A stretch of DNA of 64,000 bases from NCBI GenBank assembly GCA_963663225.1, contig OY760142.1:1508509-1572508 (forward strand), in the 5' to 3' direction. The DNA is from Nitrospirota bacterium (GTDB taxonomy: Bacteria; Nitrospirota; UBA9217). The notes beneath the pieces were generated by a model, which was not told the DNA's origin, did not search any database, and worked only from the letters and a program-made list of their open reading frames with translations. How positions within the stretch are numbered: position 1 is the first letter of the stretch; each line of letters begins with the position of its first letter. Made by a program: the position numbers and the translations under genes. Below, piece after piece: positions 3-45,596 of the stretch.

Positions 3-896
3 TCCATTGCCCAGAAGCCGTTTGCCAAGGAAGGCTTCATCCGCCACCTTCCCATGTTTCTGTCCGGTCTTTCCGAGTACCGGAGCCTTCCGACCATTGC
101 GCCTGTACCGTTCCGTGATCTGTTCAAAAAGATCAAACAGCCGCCGAGCAAAACAAAAATTGCGTTTTTCTCCGGGTGCGCCATTGACTTTGTGTTCCCC
201 AGAATCGGTGAAGCCCTGGTCAAGGTGCTGAATAAGGCGGGGATTGAAGTTGTTTTCCCGGATTCGCAGTCATGCTGCGGCATCCCGCACTGGGGCAGCG
301 GCGCTTTTGACATGGCGGCCCTGGCAGCGGCCCACAATATCAAGCCGCTTCTTGCGGAAGACGTGCAGTATGTGGTTACCGCTTGCGCGACCTGCGCGAC
401 GGCCCTCAAAAAAGAATGGCCGCATGTGCTGAAAGATGAGAAGATGGAGGCACTGGTCCCCGATGCTGAGAAACTGGCTGCAAAGACAGTGATGTTCTCG
501 GAATTAGTGAATAAGCTGATAGAAGAGAAGAAACTGACCCCAAAGGATGGGCAGCAACTGCAAAGAATCACCTATCATGACTCCTGTCATGCTAGACGGC
601 ACGTGGGGATTTATAAAGAACCTCGTGCGGCACTTACTGCGGCTGGATATGAGCTGAAGGAAATGGTGGAACACGATACCTGCTGCGGCATGGGCGGATC
701 GTACACGGTGAAACAGCCGAAGCTTTCCATGAAAATGCTCCAGCGGAAACTGAAAAATATTGAGGATACGGGTGCGGAATATGTATGTGCCGAGTGCCCC
801 GGTTGTCTCATTCAGCTGGCTGGAGGGCTGGATAAATCAGGATCAAAAATAAAGGCAAAGCATCCGGCAGAGCTGCTGCTGGAAAAACTGAAATAA
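3..896 (+). CDS. CCG-domain (Fe-S)-binding oxidoreductase, GlcF/GlpC/LutA-like, 5' partial (runs off window start)
   Basis: Two cysteine-rich CCG-type motifs (FFSGCAIDF...SCCGIPHWGSG and YHDSCHARRH...DTCCGMGGSY). The frame is open to the window edge. Confidence 0.55.
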   Translation, partial: SIAQKPFAKEGFIRHLPMFLSGLSEYRSLPTIAPVPFRDLFKKIKQPPSKTKIAFFSGCAIDFVFPRIGEALVKVLNKAGIEVVFPDSQSCCGIPHWGSGAFDMAALAAAHNIKPLLAEDVQYVVTACATCATALKKEWPHVLKDEKMEALVPDAEKLAAKTVMFSELVNKLIEEKKLTPKDGQQLQRITYHDSCHARRHVGIYKEPRAALTAAGYELKEMVEHDTCCGMGGSYTVKQPKLSMKMLQRKLKNIEDTGAEYVCAECPGCLIQLAGGLDKSGSKIKAKHPAELLLEKLK

Positions 897-1173: not shown

Positions 1174-1935
1174 ATGGCAACAAATACATCGCGGAAGAAA
1201 CAAGACACGGTGACGAGATCGGACCAATTTTTATTGATTGTAGAAAGCGAGCCAGATAATCTCAATTACGTGTCCGCGCTTCTCACGCGGTTTAAGTACC
1301 AGACCCGTACTGCAGCAAGTGCTGCCGAAGCCTCGGCAATTATCGCAGAAACAGTACCGCCACTCGTAATTACATCGGCGTTTCTCCAGGATATGGACGG
1401 AGTGGAATTTATCAAACAACTGAAGAACGACCCGCGTACTGCCCACGTTCCCTGTATTGCATTAACCAGAGAAGGAGACCTGTACCAGGAAGCGCGCTGC
1501 TTTGAAGCAGGGGCAGCAGAATGCTTCTCCCACCCGATTTCCGCCGAACTGCTGTACAGGACCGTACAAGCCATAATCGAACCGACGCCACGCAAAAACA
1601 TGCGGGTTCAGACTATGCATCCGGTGAAAGTGACCAATACGCCACGTGACGAGCGGGAAGGTATCTATACTCTGGATCTGTCGGAGCAGGGGATGTTTGT
1701 CCGCACAGCTGAGCCCGCCCCTCTTCATACGCGGCTTTCCCTCCAGCTGGATCTTGAAGGTCAGACGATTCCGTTGGAGGCTGCTGTTTTGTACCAGTGC
1801 AGAGGAGACGCAAACCCGTATCACGAACCAGGGATGGGATTGGGTTTTGTCCAGATAACACAAGAAGATCAGGAATATCTCCGAAAGTTCATACTGGAAG
1901 AAGTCATGCGGGGCATTCCTCACGGGCATGCATGA
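1174..1935 (+). CDS. response-regulator receiver + PilZ domain protein (paralog 1 of 3 in tandem)
   Basis: REC-like N-terminus (LLIVESEPDN...QDMDG). C-terminal PilZ signature RKNMR (RxxxR) and DLSEQG (DxSxxG). Start chosen at the internal ATG with GGGGTGA RBS; the track ORF begins at 1024. Confidence 0.65.
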   Translation: MATNTSRKKQDTVTRSDQFLLIVESEPDNLNYVSALLTRFKYQTRTAASAAEASAIIAETVPPLVITSAFLQDMDGVEFIKQLKNDPRTAHVPCIALTREGDLYQEARCFEAGAAECFSHPISAELLYRTVQAIIEPTPRKNMRVQTMHPVKVTNTPRDEREGIYTLDLSEQGMFVRTAEPAPLHTRLSLQLDLEGQTIPLEAAVLYQCRGDANPYHEPGMGLGFVQITQEDQEYLRKFILEEVMRGIPHGHA

Positions 1936-2015
1936 GAATACTACATAATCAGCCGGATACGATTGCATAAACTCCGGATTGCTGCAATGAAACATGCTTC
2001 ACAAGGGAGTCCATC

Positions 2016-2780
2016 TTGACTGACAACAAATCACAGAAGAAAACTCCGGGCAATCTTGATCGAAAAAGCCGTTTCCTGCTGGTGATAGACAGCAATGCCG
2101 AGAACGTTTCCCACTTATCCGCACTGCTTCGTCGTTTTAATTATCCGACATTCTGTGCTCCCACTGCAAAAGAGGCCCTTGAAATCGCGGCAACCGCAGT
2201 TCCTCTCCTTATTCTTATTTCCCTCGACTGTTTAGAAATGGACGGCTATGATCTCATGCGGCGGTTTAGGGAATCCCCACAGACTGCCGCTGTTCCCTTA
2301 ATTGCATTGAGCAAGCAGCAGGATAGGACTGTAAGAACACGGTGCCTGGATCTGGGAGCAGTCGGCTGCCTCTTTTATCCGATTTCCGCCGAAGCATTGT
2401 ACCGGGTTGTCCAGGTTGCTATAGAAAAAAACCCGCGTTCCTGCATGCGTATTCAGACGAACCAGCCGGTAAAAGTAAATGATATAAAGCATGACAGCCT
2501 GTATGGCGCATATACGCTGGATCTGTCAGAGCGCGGCATGTTCCTTCGAACGGCTAATCCCGCGTCTGCAAAAACGAAGCTTCCGCTTCAACTTGACTTG
2601 AACGGCAGAATTATTAATACCGAGGGAGAAGTGCTCTACAGCTGCAAAGCGGGTGATGAGCCGTATAAAGAACCGGGGATCGGCCTTAAGTTCACCCAGC
2701 TTGAATCAAAAGACCGGGAATATCTCCGGAATTTTATCAGCGAAGAAGTTGCGCGAGATAAGGCAGAGGACGAAAAATAG
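2016..2780 (+). CDS. response-regulator receiver + PilZ domain protein (paralog 2), TTG start
   Basis: Same architecture as paralog 1. RSCMR and DLSERG motifs. AAGGGAG RBS 7 nt before the TTG. Confidence 0.65.
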   Translation: MTDNKSQKKTPGNLDRKSRFLLVIDSNAENVSHLSALLRRFNYPTFCAPTAKEALEIAATAVPLLILISLDCLEMDGYDLMRRFRESPQTAAVPLIALSKQQDRTVRTRCLDLGAVGCLFYPISAEALYRVVQVAIEKNPRSCMRIQTNQPVKVNDIKHDSLYGAYTLDLSERGMFLRTANPASAKTKLPLQLDLNGRIINTEGEVLYSCKAGDEPYKEPGIGLKFTQLESKDREYLRNFISEEVARDKAEDEK

Positions 2781-2877
2781 CGAAATGGTTGCCTGTACTG
2801 TTGCTGGTACGCATGATTTTTGAAAATCCTGCTCGGCGAATCAGTTGTAAAAATCTGTTCATACGAGGGCTATAAGC

Positions 2878-3639
2878 ATGGCGAACTATGATTCTGCCAA
2901 GCCTTTATACCGGCACACGCTTGGAAAACCTACCATCCTTGTTGTGGATGGCGACCTCAACAGCAGCTTTTACATGACCACCCTGCTGAAACGGTTCAAC
3001 TATGAGCCCTGCACGGCAAGAACCGTCGACGAAGCCCTCGACATGACGGTGAGCATGAAAATCTCTCTTCTCATCGTATCGTTGTCTTTAAGGAATATGG
3101 ATGGCCCTGAGATCGTGCAGCGCTTTAAGACGAGTTCGGCAACTGAGACCATTCCTCTTCTTGGACTCTCGAGAAAAAACGATCCGGCCATGATGCACTG
3201 TTGCATGCAAGCCGGGGCGGCTGATTGCCTTGTGCAGCCGGTTCCCGCTGAGCAACTGTACCGAACCGTCCAGAAGGCAACCGAAGCAAAACCACGGAAG
3301 GACATCCGCATTCGGACGCTCCAACCGGTAAAAATAGGCCAATCGTTGCCCGAAACGTTTGAGGCCGCATGCATCCTTGATTTGTCGGAACGCGGGGTGT
3401 TTTTACATGCCATGAAACAACCCCCCGTAAACGCAACACTCTCTCTGCACATTGATCTGAATCACGTTATTATTCCGGTAGAGGCAGTGGTTGTATACAG
3501 TTATCAGGCTCCGGGCGGCCCCTCTCCGAGAGTGGGAATGGGGCTTGAGTTTGTAAAAATCGCCCCGGAAGACCAGGGATATATCCGGCAGTTTATCCGA
3601 GACGAAGTGACGCGGGGGATCGCACCTGTCAGTGCCTGA
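2878..3639 (+). CDS. response-regulator receiver + PilZ domain protein (paralog 3)
   Basis: RKDIR and DLSERG motifs. REC-like N-terminus. Confidence 0.65.
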   Translation: MANYDSAKPLYRHTLGKPTILVVDGDLNSSFYMTTLLKRFNYEPCTARTVDEALDMTVSMKISLLIVSLSLRNMDGPEIVQRFKTSSATETIPLLGLSRKNDPAMMHCCMQAGAADCLVQPVPAEQLYRTVQKATEAKPRKDIRIRTLQPVKIGQSLPETFEAACILDLSERGVFLHAMKQPPVNATLSLHIDLNHVIIPVEAVVVYSYQAPGGPSPRVGMGLEFVKIAPEDQGYIRQFIRDEVTRGIAPVSA

Positions 3640-3707: not shown

Positions 3708-4292
3708 TTGCCGAATTCTTCCACAACATACTACGATGATGATGAATTACGCGAAGCGCTGACTCTGGTCAATTCGTACAGGACGCTTCACGAAATTTAC
3801 GGGTTATTTTACGGCTGCATGGCTGCGGCAAAACGCGTGGATTCCTCGCAGTACCTGCCTCTGGTGTACGATGTGGACACCGAAGACAACATATCGGCGG
3901 AAAACAGCGAGAAGGTTCACAACAATCTCATATCTCTCTGGAATTTTGTCGCGCGCTGGAAGCCGCAGGATGAGCCATTTTCTTTTCCCGATCAGGTCTA
4001 TTCCGACACTGCCCAGGGGCTGCTTGAGCATGCGGCCGATGATATGGCGCTGATAGAATATTTTAAAAAAGGGCTTGAAATGGCAGGCATGCCTCAGTCG
4101 CCCGCGATTGCAACTGCGATGCGCGATCTTGATGCTGTTACAGGCCAACTACAGCATTATGCCGAAATGTATGAAGCCGTGGATCCGGAAGCGGAGGTAA
4201 AAAACCTAAAAGCATCTGAACAGAAATTTGAAGAACTGGAAGAGGCCATAGCCCGCAGCATAGCCAGAATAACCATGGTGAAAAAAAAATAG
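3708..4292 (+). CDS. UPF0149 (YgfB/YecA-like) family protein, TTG start
   Basis: About 190 aa, with LHEIYGLFYGCMAAAKRVDSSQYLPLV resembling the YgfB N-terminal motif. Weak by-eye similarity. Confidence 0.4.
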   Translation: MPNSSTTYYDDDELREALTLVNSYRTLHEIYGLFYGCMAAAKRVDSSQYLPLVYDVDTEDNISAENSEKVHNNLISLWNFVARWKPQDEPFSFPDQVYSDTAQGLLEHAADDMALIEYFKKGLEMAGMPQSPAIATAMRDLDAVTGQLQHYAEMYEAVDPEAEVKNLKASEQKFEELEEAIARSIARITMVKKK

Positions 4293-22341: not shown

Positions 22342-22719
22342 CTACGCGCTTTTCTGCTTCAACATCGGCTCAATAACCATCCTGTCAATATCCTCCGGGC
22401 GAAACGGTTTCTCAATATACTGCACTCTTCCTTTTTTCTGCAGCAATGCTTGCAATTCCAGCGACCACGATGCCGTCATGATGATGACCGGAACGGAAGG
22501 ACACTGCTTTTGGGCATACTCAATGACAGTATATCCATCAAGATTCGGCATTACCAGATCGGTCAGAATCATATTCACGCAGTTTGATTCGAGCAGATGA
22601 ATGGCCTTCTCCCCGTCTCCCGCAGTCAGTACGGTCAAGTCGGGTACTCTTGAGCAAAGATAGGATGCAAGTGTATCGCAAAGAGTCTTATTATCATCAA
22701 CGATAAGAATGGTTCTCAT
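22342..22719 (-). CDS. single-domain CheY-like response regulator
   Basis: 125 aa with LIVDDN...DLVMPNLDG...K REC signature. Confidence 0.75.
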   Translation of the reverse strand: MRTILIVDDNKTLCDTLASYLCSRVPDLTVLTAGDGEKAIHLLESNCVNMILTDLVMPNLDGYTVIEYAQKQCPSVPVIIMTASWSLELQALLQKKGRVQYIEKPFRPEDIDRMVIEPMLKQKSA

Positions 22720-22983
22720 GGCTGTCCTATATAAGCGTATAAGAACGAATTAGTACACCTCTTTTTATTAATTAGCAAAATGGATACCAGACGGATAACA
22801 GCAGGATAATGCAGGAAATGACCGGTAATAGCAGATTGAATTGTTCCTTGGATGATTATTTTGGCTGACCCATTTTGATCAGGGATCAGAAAGGAGGCAT
22901 CAGATCAGCAGATACGGAGTTTTTCCAAAATGCACGGAATATCGGAGAGGTTTCTTGGTGCTTTGCGGTTATGTGAAGCTTTA

Positions 22984-24363
22984 CTATGAGTTGGTCTTAA
23001 TCTTTCGCTTTAACGTGGATAAGGATATTCCCAGGGCTTTTGCTGTTTTTGTAAAATTATTTCCAAGTAGTTCCAGCGCATACCGGATATGCCTTTTTTC
23101 CAGTTCATCGAGAGAGATAATTTCGTGCGAATTTGCCGGCTGTGCGTCCGGCACAGGGGCCGGAGGATTTTTTTTCTGATCAAGCAGCAGGGACGGGCGG
23201 AGTTCCGCACCATGCTGAAGCATCAGGGAGCGCTCCAGGACATTTCTGAGTTCGCGCACATTGCCCGGCCAATCATATGCCATAAGCTGCTTCTGTTCCT
23301 CGGAAGACAGGGCCGTTATTTTGTTTGCATTCAAGGTTCCCAGCAGATAGTTGGAGAGTGCCGGAATATCGCCGCGCCGCTCCCGCAAAGGCGGAAGGTG
23401 GATCTGCAGCACGCTGAGTCGATAAAAAAGGTCTTTGCGGAAGGTTTTGCCTGTAGCGCTGCTTAAGTCGACACCGGTTGCGGCTATGATACGGACATTA
23501 ACAGACCGGGCGGACGTCCCGCCCAGCTTGCGTACAAGCTTGTCATCGATCACGCTCAAAAGCTTGGCCTGCAGGTGCGGAGGCATTTCCCCAATTTCGT
23601 CGAGAAACAGGGTGCCGCCTTCCGCCATCTCAAAGATGCCCTTTCGTGACGCAGCTGCGCCGGTAAACGCCCCTTTCTCATAGCCGAACAGCTCCGCTTC
23701 AATCAATGTTTCGGGCAAGGCGGCACAGTTTATGCTGATGAACGGTGCCGAATTTCTTGCACTTTGGTAATGAATTGTTTTTGCCAGCATTGTTTTGCCG
23801 GTACCTGTTTCTCCGGTGATGAGAACCGGCGAGTCGGAGCGTGCGGCAAGCTCCTTCATTTTCATGATTTCGCCCAGATTTTCTCCACCGATAAAAACCG
23901 TTTCTGCATTTTCGCGAGTTCCTCGATAGTTCTGAAGCTGCTCATATCGTTCCAGTTCCAGAGTCCTAAGCGCTTGCCCGACCGCCAGACGCAGTGCCTC
24001 AAGTTCAAAAGGTTTTGTCAGGTAATCATATGCACCCTGCCTTATGGCCGCCACGGCATGCTCAAAGCTGGGATAAGCGGTTGCAAAAATGATTTTAGTT
24101 TGGTCGTTGTATTTCAGAATTTCGGGGCAGAGCGTGTGGCCTTCCGCGTCCGGAAGCTGCTGATCAAGCAGCACGACGTCGACTGTTTGGCGGGAGCATA
24201 CGGTGATTCCTTCTTGTGCGGTGTGTGCCGTGAGCACAGCAATTTTCCCCTTGTCAAAGTAATCTTTTACCGCCTCGGCATATATCCTGTCATCGTCAAT
24301 GACAAGTAATGTCTTTTCACCATCGCGCTGCACCACAACAGCCTCCCTCTCATTACATACCAT
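22984..24363 (-). CDS. sigma54-dependent two-component response regulator (NtrC family)
   Basis: REC (LLVIDDD...LLDQQLPDAEG), AAA+ sigma54-interaction domain (GETGTGKT, GAFTGA, ESELFGYEKGAFTGA) and C-terminal Fis-type HTH. Start placed at internal ATG; the track ORF is longer. Confidence 0.85.
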   Translation of the reverse strand: MVCNEREAVVVQRDGEKTLLVIDDDRIYAEAVKDYFDKGKIAVLTAHTAQEGITVCSRQTVDVVLLDQQLPDAEGHTLCPEILKYNDQTKIIFATAYPSFEHAVAAIRQGAYDYLTKPFELEALRLAVGQALRTLELERYEQLQNYRGTRENAETVFIGGENLGEIMKMKELAARSDSPVLITGETGTGKTMLAKTIHYQSARNSAPFISINCAALPETLIEAELFGYEKGAFTGAAASRKGIFEMAEGGTLFLDEIGEMPPHLQAKLLSVIDDKLVRKLGGTSARSVNVRIIAATGVDLSSATGKTFRKDLFYRLSVLQIHLPPLRERRGDIPALSNYLLGTLNANKITALSSEEQKQLMAYDWPGNVRELRNVLERSLMLQHGAELRPSLLLDQKKNPPAPVPDAQPANSHEIISLDELEKRHIRYALELLGNNFTKTAKALGISLSTLKRKIKTNS

Positions 24364-24627
24364 ATGCTGCTTTTTAGCTGTAGTTGGTGCAAATGTACGC
24401 GGAGGAAGCAGTTTTGTCAAGAGGAAGGATTTGCAATGAAGCAATACGGACAGAGGCCGATATAAACCCTGGGTAATTGAACTGTCACGGGAAAGCATAC
24501 GTCCATTTTGAAATAACTATACAGAAAATTCTTGATTTTTTGGCATGGTCCGATGGTTGGGAAGAAGGAGTAAATAAATTTTTTTGATAAAACTAAAAAT
24601 TGCAATAAGGGTATCAGCTCGACATAA

Positions 24628-24676: not shown

Positions 24677-25651
24677 TTACAGCATTTCTTCAAGACTGAT
24701 GGTCCTGGTTGTGGTGATGTTCCTGAGCTTCTTGAGCGCCTGCTCCTGGATTTGCCTTACCCGTTCCCGGGTAATTTTGAGGGCTTTACCGATGCTGTCC
24801 AGGGTCCGTGGTTTTTCGCCGTCCAGTCCAAACCGCAATTCAATGACTTCCCGTTCAATATCGCGAAGTTCTGCAAGCCACTCATCGATATGTTTCCGTT
24901 TGCGGATTTCATCCGAGGCTTCCATGGGAGAAAAAGCTTTTTCATCCTCAAGAACGCTTTGAAGTGTGTCCTCCTCGTGATCCCCGATCAGCATATCCAG
25001 AGAATACGTTTCGCGGAGCACTTGAGACAGGCTTCGCACTTTATCGATGCTGATGTTCATTTTTTTTGCAATTTCATCCAGGCCGGGTTCACGGCCAAGT
25101 TCCTGCGTCAGGGAGCGCACTGTCGCAGAATATGAGTGTACCATGCCCGCGACATGCACCGGAAGACGAATGATCCGGGCTTGATTTACAATAGCCCGTT
25201 CGATTGCCTGTCTGATCCACCAAACGGCATACGTGCTGAATTTCAAACCGCGCTGATACTGAAACTTTTCGACCGCCCTGATAAGGCCGAGATTGCCCTC
25301 TTCCAGAATGTCGGCAAAGGGCAGCCCCCGGTTGATATATTTTTTGCCGACGGCAACCACGAGCCGAAGGTTTGATTCGATCATGGCCTTACGGGCCCGG
25401 TCATCTCCCTCGGCAATTCTTTTTCCCAAGGTCTGCTCTTCCGCAAATGTGAGAAGAGGAAAGCTTCTGATGTCTTTGAGGTAGTATTTAACTGCATCCA
25501 GGTCCTTTGCAGGGGTCCGGCCGCGTTCCTTAATCTGATCGAACTTGCTGCCTGAATCTTCGCGCGCTATTTCCATTCTCTCGTCAAGTTGAAGATCAGG
25601 TTCAAGAAAATCCGACACTGACAACTCAGGTTCCATAGTCATTGTGCTCAT
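24677..25651 (-). CDS. group-2 sigma-70 family RNA polymerase sigma factor (RpoS/RpoD-like)
   Basis: Regions 2-4 are present ([37 protein letters not shown], and [28 protein letters not shown]). Size of about 325 aa suits RpoS-like. GGAG RBS. Confidence 0.8.
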
Positions 25652-26046
25652 TATTGTCTCCTCGTTCTTCGTTTGGAAATGCATAAAAATGCAACGTATT
25701 GTTTTTGTTTATGGTACAGGATGGTTCTGTAATTTGTTGCGGGCAATACGCTACTCTATGCAAACAGGAGGCCAAGACAAAAAATAATAAAGGATTAAAT
25801 AAATCAGTATGTTAACGAGTAAAAAGTTATAAAAAAATGCGGACCCATTCAAAATGACCTATCTATTTTGTGGTAGCATTCATTTTCAACAGTCTTTAAC
25901 AAAAATTTTTTCGCTGCATCATAAATAATGAGAGGAAATGATATCTGCATAAAATGACGCGGAGGTAATTGATGGCAAGCAGGAAGCTGTAATGGGAAGC
26001 GTTGCGTGACAGAAAGGAATTACAAATAGTGCAGCGTGGTTGTCTG

Positions 26047-41318: not shown

Positions 41319-42575
41319 ATGAGGAAAATCGTCATATGCGCCAGCCTGCTGTTCGTAATCCTTCTTGCGTATTCTGCTTCCCCTGCCTACTCAAAGTCAA
41401 GCCAGCCCCAAATTAACGCTTGTGTTGCGTGTCATACCAGCGACCAAACCTTAAAGAAGCTGTTCATACCCCCCAAGGTCCAGGCCTCGGAAGGAGAAGG
41501 GTGAGCAGGGGTGCCACCGTCAGTTCCGGCGGAACTGATGTACAAGGCGTTCCTGGTTGACAAGGATTTGCTTGATCAGGACGCGCATTTTTCAGAAGGT
41601 TGCAGCCCGTGCCACAAAGGCAATGAAAAAGGAAAAGGCAAGGAAGGGGCACACCGCGGCATGGTAAAACGGCCGTCAGATAATCTTGCTGTCTGCGGAA
41701 AATGCCATGAGGATACTTCGCAGCATTACAAAACAGCTCTTCACTATACCTCAGCAGGCCAGATGCATGGAGTCAAGGCGAGATTCAATGAGAAGGAATT
41801 CAAAGCATTTGATCAGAAAGTCTTTGGAAAATCCTGCAGGAGCTGCCATGCATCCTGCGGAGATTGCCATGTAAAATCTCCATCCATAGGAGGCATCGGA
41901 ACAGGATTTATCAAGGGGCACCAGTTCGTAAAACGTGATGAAGGAAAAACATGCGGTATCTGCCACGGAGGCAGAGTGTATCCGGAATACACCGGCGACT
42001 ATGGCGGCTCAGCAGACGTCCATTACCAGAAAGGAATGCTCTGTCTGGACTGCCATAAAAAATCGGAACTGCATGGCAATGGTACGGCTTATCAAGGAAG
42101 AAAGGAAGTCCAGGGACGGCCTGCCTGCGTTCAATGCCATCCCCGGGGCAGTGAAAAAACGGACACCTCGAAGACCGCCCATGTCCAGCATGGAGACAAG
42201 GTGAGTTGCTATGCGTGCCATTCAGGGGGAACCTACAGAAACTGCTACGACTGCCACCTTGGGAAGGGTGCATCATCAAAACCCGGCTTTATCCTGGGAA
42301 TAGATCCACAGAATAAAAAAACCGTTACTACCCTGAGACTGATACCAACCGTACGGGACACATTCAAACCGGCAGGAATTTCTATGGCAGGTTTTGATGC
42401 GCTCCCGAACTACTGGGGCACGTCGCCTCACAATATCAAAAAGCGCACCGAACGCACCCGGTCGTGTGACGTGTGCCATCAGGAGCACAAGGATTTTCTG
42501 ACAAAAGAAGGATTGATACCAAACGGTTCCAAGGCGAATGAAGGCCTAATTTATGACTTTAAACTCAATAAATAA
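41319..42575 (+). pseudogene. secreted undecaheme c-type cytochrome interrupted by one in-frame TGA (41502-41504). It is either a nonsense or sequencing lesion, or a Sec/readthrough codon.
   Basis: Track ORFs 41319..41504 (signal peptide plus CVACH) and 41511..42575 (10 further CxxCH motifs, no signal peptide) share a frame and are separated only by TGA-GCA-GGG. Confidence 0.6.
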
Positions 42576-43530: not shown

Positions 43531-43730
43531 TCCACCTGCGCTTAGTCCTCAGCGCCATCCTTCTCCGTGTCTTTTGCCACGATGCTTTCCAGCCCCAAAA
43601 TACGCCTTTTATAGCCGAAACAGGTATTGCACAAGAAAAATTAAAGTATTAAATACCCATTTCGGGCGATTTACTTTCACGGAAGACTATGGTATGTCAT
43701 CTGTTAACGATATTGAAGAGGGCATACGAG

Positions 43731-44504
43731 ATGAAAAATGATGGTGAATTTACGCAAGACGGTACCGAACAAAGAAAACATACCCTGCTAATTCTCGACA
43801 GAGAGCCGCAAGAACTTATTCGAATGTCAAAGCTCTTTGAGCGAATAGGTTATCAAACCGCTACAGCTAGGATGGGTTGCGAGGCATTCAAGACAGTAAA
43901 GAAGATAATTCCAAACCTGATTCTTACTGCGATGGACCTTGAAGATATGAGTGGAATTGCATTCATTAGTCAGCTCAGCCAAAACAGAAAAACAGAACAT
44001 ATTCCAATCGTTGTTTTGAAAGGTCCCCAGGATCTTGCCAGGGAACAAGATTATCTTGGCGCTGGCGCAGCGGTTTGCCTGTGTAAGTCGTCTTCGATCG
44101 AAACGATGTATCAAACAATGCAGAGACTCCAGAAGAAAGAATTGCGGGAAAAAATCCGCATTCAAACGCATCACCCTGTTAAGATTGAGACTGCCCCGTT
44201 CTGCGATCATTATGGCATGCACACACTGACGTTATCGGAACGGGGGATGTTTCTTTTCAGCAGGGTGCATGCCCCTGAAAATACCAGGCTTGCGCTCCGT
44301 ATTAATCTACAAGGACTTATCATTGCGGCCGAAGCCAGGGTTTTGTACAATGGCCGGTCACGACGTAGTTCTCATCAGGAGCCCGGGTTAGGGCTTGAAT
44401 TTATTACTATTGGACCTCAAGACCGGGAATGCATACGGACATTCATAAACAATGAAATAATGAAAGACATTCAGCCGAAAATTAGCCTGCAGCTATCTGC
44501 TTGA
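43731..44504 (+). CDS. response-regulator receiver + PilZ domain protein (paralog 4, unlinked to the tandem trio)
   Basis: Same fold order as the trio. REKIR and LSERG motifs. Start uncertain (track ORF starts at 43689). Confidence 0.6.
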   Translation: MKNDGEFTQDGTEQRKHTLLILDREPQELIRMSKLFERIGYQTATARMGCEAFKTVKKIIPNLILTAMDLEDMSGIAFISQLSQNRKTEHIPIVVLKGPQDLAREQDYLGAGAAVCLCKSSSIETMYQTMQRLQKKELREKIRIQTHHPVKIETAPFCDHYGMHTLTLSERGMFLFSRVHAPENTRLALRINLQGLIIAAEARVLYNGRSRRSSHQEPGLGLEFITIGPQDRECIRTFINNEIMKDIQPKISLQLSA

Positions 44505-44598
44505 TAATTTTTCCAGTTAATTTTTTCAATATGTGAACAATGGTTGGAATTTTGATATAATCATGACTAAAAGCGGCCTACAAATGGAGACCTTAGCT

Positions 44599-45132
44599 AT
44601 GCAGAGGGTACGCGGTACAGCCTTTATAATTATCCTGACATTTTTTGCAACGCTTCAGGCTTGTGTAGCGGGTGTTCATCTCCTGCCGAAATCGGCAGAC
44701 CCGTCGGAAATTAAAGGAACTTATACGCTTATACTCTATGGATGCCGGTACGCAGATGATTTGGAGAACGTGGCTGTTCTTGTAGACGCAAAAAACAAGT
44801 ATAAATTTGAAGTTTATGCGCTTGAAAACATGTATAAAGTAAAAAAAGAAGTTTCGGGTTCAGAGGCAATTCGTGAAGCAAACGCATTTATCAACTGCAG
44901 CATGCATACCGTATGGCAGACGGTGCTGCGCAGAATTTCCGATGCCGACGGCAGAACCATCGCATACGAACTGAAACCATTATACAGGCCATGGGAATTT
45001 AAGATTTCAGAAGTACTGTTGTCTTCGTACGTGTTGCACGACGACACGGTGACGGCTTACTTTACGCTTGATCCGTCGGTGAAAATGGACGATGGACCTT
45101 TAATCTGGCCAAGAACCCTGAGACGTTATTAG
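44599..45132 (+). CDS. hypothetical lipoprotein
   Basis: Signal peptide ending in lipobox LQAC. No family recognised. Confidence 0.45.
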   Translation: MQRVRGTAFIIILTFFATLQACVAGVHLLPKSADPSEIKGTYTLILYGCRYADDLENVAVLVDAKNKYKFEVYALENMYKVKKEVSGSEAIREANAFINCSMHTVWQTVLRRISDADGRTIAYELKPLYRPWEFKISEVLLSSYVLHDDTVTAYFTLDPSVKMDDGPLIWPRTLRRY

Positions 45133-45191
45133 AGTACGGCACGCTGTTCACAATGGCTGCAGTTTGTATCCAAGCAAGAGGAGAGACAAGT

Positions 45192-45596
45192 ATGCTTCAA
45201 AATAAGATCGTAGCCCGCTACCAGGATGGCCGTGTAATAAAAGGATTCACCAGCGATTTTATGCCTGGAAAAAATATGCTGCACCTCAGTGTCTTCGGCG
45301 CACAGCCGAATTCGAAGCCCATACCTGTTTCTGTTCAGGAGTTAAAAGCGATTTTTTTTGTCAAGGACTTTACGGGAAATCCTGCGTATCAGGACAAAAG
45401 AGAATTCGATCCGGAGAAACCGGTTGCAGGTCGGAAGATTAAGGTGATTTTTAAAGATGGAGAGCTTTTGGTAGGAACTACACAAGGGTACCAACCAGGC
45501 CGGATAGGATTTTTTGTCTTCCCGATAGACCCGAAATCGAATAATGACCGCTGCTTTGTTGTCTCTCCCGCCACAAAAGGTATCTGGCTCGTCTGA
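45192..45596 (+). CDS. hypothetical protein
   Basis: AGGAGAG RBS. 134 aa. No family recognised by eye. Confidence 0.4.
   Translation: MLQNKIVARYQDGRVIKGFTSDFMPGKNMLHLSVFGAQPNSKPIPVSVQELKAIFFVKDFTGNPAYQDKREFDPEKPVAGRKIKVIFKDGELLVGTTQGYQPGRIGFFVFPIDPKSNNDRCFVVSPATKGIWLV

Follow-up and report, generated by a model that had tools for sequence, protein, structure and literature searches.

What could three receiver-PilZ genes standing head to tail respond to, if their receiver halves lack the site of phosphorylation? This question was raised by a stretch of 64,000 nucleotides (nt) of contig OY760142.1 from a Nitrospirota bacterium, hereafter the window, in which genes A, B and C follow each other on the same strand and a fourth copy, gene D, is located 40 kb away. 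An earlier note, made from the DNA letters, had described the four products as fusions of a receiver (REC) and a PilZ domain with intact signatures for the binding of cyclic di-guanosine monophosphate (c-di-GMP). Our analysis suggests, with a probability of roughly 0.7, that A to D are cytoplasmic c-di-GMP receptors of one small uncharacterised family. Three points go beyond the earlier note: the receivers have no phospho-acceptor aspartate, the trio is a short form of arrays that can reach nine genes, and HD-GYP genes are found beside the arrays of relatives.

Four genes code for a receiver domain followed by a PilZ domain

The open reading frames (ORFs) of the four genes and their domains, in amino acids (aa), are given below. 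The letters after each pseudo-receiver are the residues opposite D12,D13 / D57 / T87 / K109 of CheY, and those after PilZ are the two binding motifs.

Gene A, 1174-1935, + strand, 253 aa: pseudo-receiver aa 21-131 (E,S / S / T / H), PilZ aa 140-241 (RKNMR, DLSEQG)
Gene B, 2016-2780, + strand, 254 aa, TTG start: pseudo-receiver aa 22-132 (D,S / S / S / Y), PilZ aa 141-242 (RSCMR, DLSERG)
Gene C, 2878-3639, + strand, 253 aa: pseudo-receiver aa 20-131 (D,G / S / S / Q), PilZ aa 140-241 (RKDIR, DLSERG)
Gene D, 43731-44504, + strand, 257 aa: pseudo-receiver aa 20-129 (D,R / A / K / K), PilZ aa 139-239 (REKIR, TLSERG)

These ORFs agree with the three adjacent same-strand genes and the fourth copy of the earlier note, and both domains scored above the Pfam cutoffs. 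In each protein a Response_reg match (E 1e-12 to 1e-15, 47-58 bits, cutoff 30.2) is followed by a PilZ match (E 9e-6 to 3e-11, 26-44 bits), so that the Pfam scan which the note had proposed as a check placed PilZ at the C-terminus of all four. The individual PilZ scores of A, B, C and D are 42.0, 44.1, 37.2 and 26.4 bits, respectively, at a gathering cutoff of 22.5 (PF07238). A family hidden Markov model (HMM) built from homologues recognised exactly four members in the window, namely A to D. Comparison with relatives identified the conserved ATG at 1174, and not the GTG at 1024 upstream, as the start of gene A. The TTG start of gene B is preceded by the Shine-Dalgarno sequence AAGGGAG and is retained in both orthologues, and gene D has an alternative ATG at 43689.

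The copies share 33-47% amino-acid and 47-55% nucleotide identity with each other, their synonymous divergence (dS) is saturated, and no direct DNA repeats longer than 17 nt were found between them. The assembly artefact that the note had named as a refuting possibility is thereby excluded. The divergence of the copies proposed earlier is borne out by these identities and by the TTG start of B, but the linkers do not differ as had been claimed: conservation in these proteins is highest at the REC-PilZ junction.

The PilZ half keeps the signatures of c-di-GMP binding

The motif pairs listed above were present as the note had quoted them, its LSERG of copy D being TLSERG with a threonine at the D/N position. 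That the c-di-GMP signatures are intact is backed by their conservation across the 114 family members on which all family statistics given here rest. The two arginine residues of RxxxR are kept in 113/114 and 112/114 members, and in motif 2 (hSxxG) the serine is found in 113/114 and the glycine in 114/114, with leucine as the hydrophobic residue in 88%. Compared with the definition [D/N]hSxxG (Galperin & Chou), the family motif fits, the D/N position alone varying.

The AlphaFold2 (AF2) model of protein B (predicted local distance difference test score pLDDT 83.9, predicted template modelling score pTM 0.74) comprises a (βα)5 receiver and, after it, six strands that lead into a long helix at the C-terminus (231-246). 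The canonical PilZ elements, a six-stranded β-barrel and a C-terminal α-helix, are both found in this model. The PilZ-only model matches the c-di-GMP-bound PilZ domains of Alg44, MapZ, YcgR, MotI, PlzA, BcsA and MrkH with a probability of 1.0 and template modelling (TM) scores of 0.55-0.70. By sequence, the PilZ half alone found nothing significant in the Protein Data Bank (PDB). A full-length structural analogue was likewise not found in the PDB, where only single domains were matched (query TM ≤ 0.46, ≤ 141 aligned residues).

Known families do not cover the full-length proteins. No match to PilZN (PF07317), PilZNR (PF12945), YcgR or YcgR_2 was obtained from Pfam for A to D at E ≤ 1, and no NCBIfam model reached its own cutoff for the full-length proteins. 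TIGR02266, the Myxococcus paralogous PilZ-type domain, scored 27-46 bits at a cutoff of 68.7 and is related, but A to D are not members of it. As judged from motifs and predicted fold, the PilZ halves look fully competent for c-di-GMP binding.

The receiver half has lost the phosphorylation site

The key receiver positions were read from an alignment of A to D with E. coli CheY:

CheY D57 (phospho-acceptor): Ser in A, Ser in B, Ser in C, Ala in D
CheY D12 / D13 (acidic pair): E,S in A; D,S in B; D,G in C; D,R in D
CheY T87: T in A, S in B, S in C, K in D
CheY K109: H in A, Y in B, Q in C, K in D
CheY Y106 (K-3, aromatic switch): Cys in A, B, C and D
CheY P61 (D+4): Q in A, L in B, R in C, E in D

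A profile alignment to PleD likewise placed the family serine opposite D53 of PleD. Family-wide, the D57 position is occupied by Ser in 52, Ala in 21, Glu in 20 and Asp in 14 of the 114 members, and the acceptor aspartate is absent from 25 of the 26 members of the first six loci as well as from all four window proteins. The position of D13, the second metal-binding residue, holds Asp in 2/114 and any acidic residue in 3/114; the K109 position is Lys in 39/114, and the Y106 position is Cys in 77/114 (e.g. Cys120 of B). Many members have a second cysteine in the motif RC[LF] at the end of α4, and a redox role of the cysteines is conceivable. The receiver fold and the PF00072 match are present, yet the acceptor aspartate together with the metal-binding pair/Thr/Lys set of a phosphorylatable REC was not found. 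Pseudo-receivers have been defined as computationally recognised receivers without key phosphotransfer residues (Bourret et al., 2025), and by their residues the receivers of A to D are to be classed as pseudo-receivers according to these criteria. Since they lack the phospho-acceptor aspartate, no cognate kinase would be expected. The absence of kinase, diguanylate cyclase and phosphodiesterase genes from the window, as reported in the earlier note, held in a motif scan, in tblastn with the HD-GYP proteins of relatives and in a Pfam search of 10 further large ORFs; an H-box or kinase was found neither by the motif scan nor within the partial Pfam coverage of the window.

Glutamate is the classical phosphomimetic residue. 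Examples of the glutamate- and aspartate-bearing members (20/114 and 14/114) are the distant P0060-P0072, and the distant members, whose acceptor residue is Asp or Glu in some cases, are found as singletons. The family seems to document a stepwise loss of phosphorylation.

The trio belongs to an array family of old paralogues

A word-indexed search yielded 27 close full-length homologues of B, and an exhaustive search gave at least 63 full-length representatives at 50% clustering among its best 150 matches. All members seen are from metagenomes or metagenome-assembled genomes (MAGs) of uncultured bacteria; a few of them are taxonomically labelled, and these are Nitrospirota. In a cluster look-up the distant members carried generic protein names such as 'CheY-like chemotaxis protein'. 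In related genomes the genes form arrays on one strand:

L009: same-strand array, 2 copies
L019: same-strand array, at least 3 copies
L015: same-strand array, at least 4 copies
L008: same-strand array, 5 copies
L020: same-strand array, 7 copies
L011: same-strand array, 9 copies

In L009, L011 and L020 the gene order is xseA, a HEAT-repeat gene, an HD-GYP gene, an HPF-CSD fusion gene, the array, PSRP kinase, ispA and dxs. In L008 the HD-GYP gene is located directly 5' of the array, which is followed by xseB, ispA, dxs and tlyA. Altogether, four loci have an HD-GYP gene on the 5' side of the array, at a distance of 0-2 genes, and the encoded proteins carry the HD and HHQHGDxRGYP signatures. The window retains the dxs/ispA/tlyA side of the arrays of its relatives, with lut genes on the upstream side, and judged by sequence and gene order its trio is a short version of these longer lineage-specific arrays. 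The UPF0149-like gene downstream of the trio was considered as a conserved partner 3' of the arrays and rejected, as it is kept in the two closest MAGs only and the genes that follow the arrays of L008, L009 and L011 are related neither to it nor among themselves. The fusion of an S30AE/HPF domain with a cold-shock domain (CSD), located between the HD-GYP gene and the array in three related loci (L009:7251-7787, L011:650-1189, L020:4707-5327), is unusual, and a tie to c-di-GMP is possible.

The A-B-C trio was found in the same context (lutC, lutB/A fusion, A, B, C, UPF0149-like gene, tlyA, dxs) in two MAGs labelled 'uncultured Nitrospiraceae bacterium' (L001 and L002). These two close relatives came from a genome scan with patterns of B only, the other matches of which were generic receivers. 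The orthologues of A are 92% and 81% identical to it (ratio of nonsynonymous to synonymous divergence, dN/dS, 0.11-0.15), those of B 96.5% and 91% (dN/dS 0.05-0.10) and those of C 96% and 72% (dN/dS 0.15-0.20). The orthologue of D in the L001 genome shares 76-80% identity at a dN/dS of 0.34, compared with 0.08-0.15 for the neighbours of D. All four genes are under purifying selection, which is more relaxed in D.

In a neighbour-joining (NJ) tree each window copy clusters with copies of other genomes and not with its own neighbours; the tree carries no support values, and only A and B are regarded as firm lineages. The reciprocal best BLAST hits of A are L008_2328, L011_5369 and L020_7296 (52-60% identity), and those of B are L008_3877, L011_6354 and L020_9893 (52-64% identity). 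These cross-genome identities of A- and B-type proteins (52-64%) exceed those of every within-genome pair (33-48% in the window), and A-type genes lie upstream of B-type genes in every array compared. The cross-genome orthology of C is weak. Because A and B are closer to their counterparts in other genomes than to each other and the order of copies is kept, these comparisons support an old expansion with copies gained and lost later, in which ancient paralogues would have been kept by selection. This agrees with the old paralogous expansion put forward in the earlier note, for which the saturated dS, the presence of trio and D in an independent MAG, dN/dS far below 1 and the reciprocal best hits across genomes all speak. 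Concerted evolution or a recent amplification is unsupported, since the copies group across genomes.

The junction of the two domains suggests a c-di-GMP-dependent switch

The lowest column entropy among the 114 sequences was found in receiver helix α5 and the E-x-x-P-R-x-x-x-R segment that follows it (1.6 bits, compared with 1.9-2.7 bits elsewhere). Within this part the residues E126, L128, Y129, Q133, E137, P140, R141 and R145 (numbering of B) are 83-99% conserved. Helix α5 passes straight into RxxxR, the c-di-GMP-binding arm, with effectively no free linker. The α4-β5-α5 face is the surface normally used by receivers for regulated dimerisation and partner binding.

From these features a mechanism can be proposed, in which RxxxR and hSxxG would capture c-di-GMP and, as α5 runs on into RxxxR, the bound ligand would fix the PilZ barrel on the α4-β5-α5 side of the receiver. 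The choice of partner by the pseudo-receiver might be altered in this way, with c-di-GMP as the input instead of aspartyl phosphorylation. Such a clamp by domain closure at α5 is proposed because the α5/RxxxR junction is under the strongest conservation; we regard it as possible, at somewhat less than even odds. It would parallel the domain closure of YcgR-type receptors and the control of the ShkA pseudo-receiver by c-di-GMP via α4-β5-α5. The tandem copies are probably parallel output channels that would differ in partners or affinities, and in related genomes the HD-GYP phosphodiesterase beside the array would set the local signal. We infer that A to D may act as c-di-GMP-switched pseudo-receiver adaptors with paralogue-specific partners, and this is the reading we favour.

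A bolder version would make the family a new class of c-di-GMP-switched receivers, in which the PilZ clamp on α5 replaces the phospho-switch and each copy of an array addresses a different partner. In this full form the proposal is doubtful. If it were true, the partners might be the usual readers of phosphorylated receivers, e.g. kinases, phosphotransferases and motor or polarity proteins. An array of 2-9 genes would then decode a single second messenger through several channels or thresholds, and the HD-GYP enzyme next to it would do the tuning.

Comparison with characterised c-di-GMP receptors

PixA of Myxococcus xanthus is the one characterised protein found to have both a PilZ and a receiver domain. 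It consists of an N-terminal PilZ domain and a receiver with all phosphorylation residues (Asp180), and genetics suggest that it is phosphorylated (PMC8316039). PixA resembles the window proteins in combining a c-di-GMP-binding PilZ domain and a receiver fold in one polypeptide, and it is also an orphan without a neighbouring kinase (PMC8316039). However, its domain order is reversed, its aspartate is kept and it is encoded by a single gene, whereas the window proteins lack the aspartate and are arrayed. YcgR, MotI (DgrA), PlzA and PP4397 are similar in length (about 250 aa) and in having RxxxR at the junction of an N-terminal output domain with PilZ, where the ligand closes the domains; their N-terminal domain is a PilZ-like barrel, in contrast to the receiver (flavodoxin-like) fold of the window proteins. 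ShkA, VpsT and FleQ contain receiver folds that work independently of phosphorylation and whose activity or interfaces are altered by c-di-GMP (PMC12632262). In these proteins c-di-GMP is bound by the receiver (ShkA), by an extension of the receiver (VpsT) or by the AAA+ domain (FleQ), whereas the window proteins would use a fused PilZ domain.

According to Galperin & Chou, REC-PilZ fusions had already been listed at the first description of PilZ (Amikam & Galperin, 2006). Large sets of two-domain PilZ paralogues are likewise known from cellulolytic clostridia, with 9 and 11 PilZN7-PilZ proteins per genome (Galperin & Chou); these have another N-terminal domain, and head-to-tail arrays are not reported in the available part of that article. 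Within the library searched, our literature search found no characterised member with the order REC-PilZ, no family-wide loss of the aspartate and no tandem arrays, and it returned no matches for PilZ proteins with aspartate-less receivers or for studies of PilZ signalling in Nitrospirota.

Nothing is overturned by the present family, as both domains and the idea of a REC-PilZ fusion were already known. How bacterial pseudo-receivers are switched is largely unknown (Bourret et al., 2025), and a c-di-GMP module welded to α5 of a phosphorylation-dead receiver would be a simple and testable answer for one class of them. Diverged arrays of 2-9 copies in conserved order may offer a natural system for the splitting of one second messenger into several outputs. 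The family also flags c-di-GMP signalling in Nitrospirota, a phylum that has hardly been studied for c-di-GMP.

Weighing of alternative explanations

Several observations weigh against the favoured reading. HD-GYP, GGDEF and EAL domains were found nowhere in the window by tblastn and motif scan, and a c-di-GMP system elsewhere in the genome is assumed. The first position of motif 2 is D in 58/114 and D or N in 62/114 members, with Thr in copy D. The loci with an HD-GYP gene are syntenic and hence not fully independent observations, and outside the HD-GYP / HPF-CSD block of this one locus group the neighbours of the arrays are unconserved housekeeping genes. Finally, the interdomain arrangement is taken from a single AF2 model.

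The array might instead serve mainly as a buffer or sponge for c-di-GMP, in which gene dosage sets the threshold of free c-di-GMP and the copies have no individual outputs. The variation in copy number from 2 to 9 across related genomes, the adjacent HD-GYP gene and the failure to find conserved partner genes are consistent with such a role. However, the copies are deeply diverged (33-55% identity) and fall into separate orthologous A-type and B-type lineages in a fixed order, and purifying selection also acts on the receiver domain, none of which would be needed by a sponge. We consider this explanation unlikely.

It is also conceivable that c-di-GMP binding has been lost from the PilZ domains and that the proteins function purely as protein-protein adaptors, like Xanthomonas PilZ or PlpA of M. 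xanthus. PilZ domains without ligand binding are common, and copy D has a weak PilZ score (26 bits), a T in place of D/N and a faster evolution. Non-binders, however, have typically lost RxxxR or the Ser/Gly pair, and these are kept here in 98-100% of 114 sequences down to about 30% identity; the subfamily of D, too, keeps RxxxR, Ser and Gly. Loss of binding is therefore distinctly unlikely.

A second signal could be joined with c-di-GMP if the serine at the acceptor position were a site for a Ser/Thr kinase or the cysteine at the switch position a redox sensor. The most frequent residues at these positions are indeed Ser (52/114) and, at K-3, Cys (77/114), and Ser/Thr phosphorylation as well as redox control of Cys have been documented in other pseudo-receivers (PMC12632262). 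Yet the serine is freely exchanged for Ala (21/114) or Glu (20/114), also in copy D and among array members, no linked kinase gene was seen, and no structural evidence points to a Cys pair. This makes a second signal of either kind very improbable.

Hardly any weight is left for the reading of A to D as ordinary response regulators, in which an orphan histidine kinase from another locus would phosphorylate the receiver and PilZ would add a second input, as has been proposed for PixA. PixA is a precedent for a PilZ protein with a phosphorylatable REC, the proteins match the receiver fold and HMM well, and the aspartate is retained in 14/114, distant members. In A to D themselves and in all but one of the 26 members of the first six loci the acceptor is gone, the second metal-binding Asp is absent from 112/114 members, A to C have no Lys, the switch residue is Cys, and neither the motif scan nor the partial Pfam coverage of the window brought up a kinase gene; the lost phosphorylation residues strongly disfavour an orphan response regulator, a reading that is rejected for the window genes. 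The view of the copies as decaying pseudogenes or as a duplication in the assembly, for which nothing speaks beyond the repetition of one architecture, can be dismissed: the nucleotide identity of 47-55%, the intact frames and absent shared repeats, the same genes in independent assemblies and dN/dS far below 1 refute an artefact.

Copy D and its surroundings

Copy D found no partner among the array members, to which it is at most 42% identical. Its orthologues are the singletons P0195-P0198 (47-51% identity), in which RxxxR and [T/A]LSERG are retained, and these comparisons place D, as a dispersed gene, in a subfamily of its own. In one related MAG (the L001 genome) D and the trio share a contig, about 36 kb apart, and D has the same neighbours as in the window, namely genes for a multihaem cytochrome, a rhodanese and a DUF6982 protein. 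A functional tie of D to the multihaem cytochrome and rhodanese was considered and rejected: this context is kept in the close relative only, and D-type orthologues of about 50% identity adjoin radical-SAM genes.

The DUF6982 protein is encoded at 45153-45596 (+ strand, E 2e-28), two genes 3' of D and beyond an unannotated 199-aa ORF (44533-45132); both of these genes are retained beside D in the related MAG (L026). The multihaem cytochrome gene (41319-42575, + strand) is apparently split: positions 41319-41504 form an ORF of 61 aa that has a signal peptide and a single CxxCH motif, and the main ORF follows in a different frame at 41511-42575. A frameshift, a problem with the start site or the presence of two genes may account for this, and the L026 orthologue is called as a protein of 345 aa.

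Regulatory elements and other genes of the window

Two putative regulatory elements were found upstream of the trio:

904-971, + strand: candidate terminator, an inverted repeat with 15-nt arms (93% complementary) and a 38-nt loop, followed by a T-run
1088-1173, + strand: candidate promoter/operator of the trio, with TATAAT at 1143-1148 and the Shine-Dalgarno sequence AGGGG at 1164-1168

The inverted repeat lies just past the stop of the lutA/B-like gene (896), its arms are conserved in L001 and L002, and it is likely a terminator that parts the trio from the lut operon. The 86-nt block at 1088-1173 is near-invariant in three genomes, with a conservation that exceeds that of the synonymous sites of the flanking genes. 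A consensus scan found no acceptable -35 element upstream of A. Because of the conserved TATAAT block and the hairpin with T-run after the lut gene, the trio probably has its own promoter. Scans for terminators and promoters inside the trio stayed at chance level, and no riboswitch or other RNA element was matched by Rfam in the whole window.

The window begins inside a gene for a 709-aa LutB-LutA fusion (4Fe-4S plus two CCG domains), of which it contains 54-896 (+ strand; L001:6752-8881); lutC precedes it in relatives. In this lineage the fusion stands where other arrays have their upstream HD-GYP block. The family HMM also picked up two ordinary receiver proteins, a single-domain receiver (22342-22749, - strand) and an NtrC-type protein (22984-24498, - strand). 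This single-domain receiver and the NtrC-type sigma-54 activator, both with normal receiver scores, adjoin a sigma-70 family gene (24677-25684), and no histidine kinase gene was seen nearby. Directly 3' of the trio, at 3708-4292 on the + strand, is the gene for the UPF0149/YgfB-like protein, which scores below the Pfam and NCBIfam cutoffs and, with a dN/dS of 0.07-0.10, evolves under strong purifying selection.

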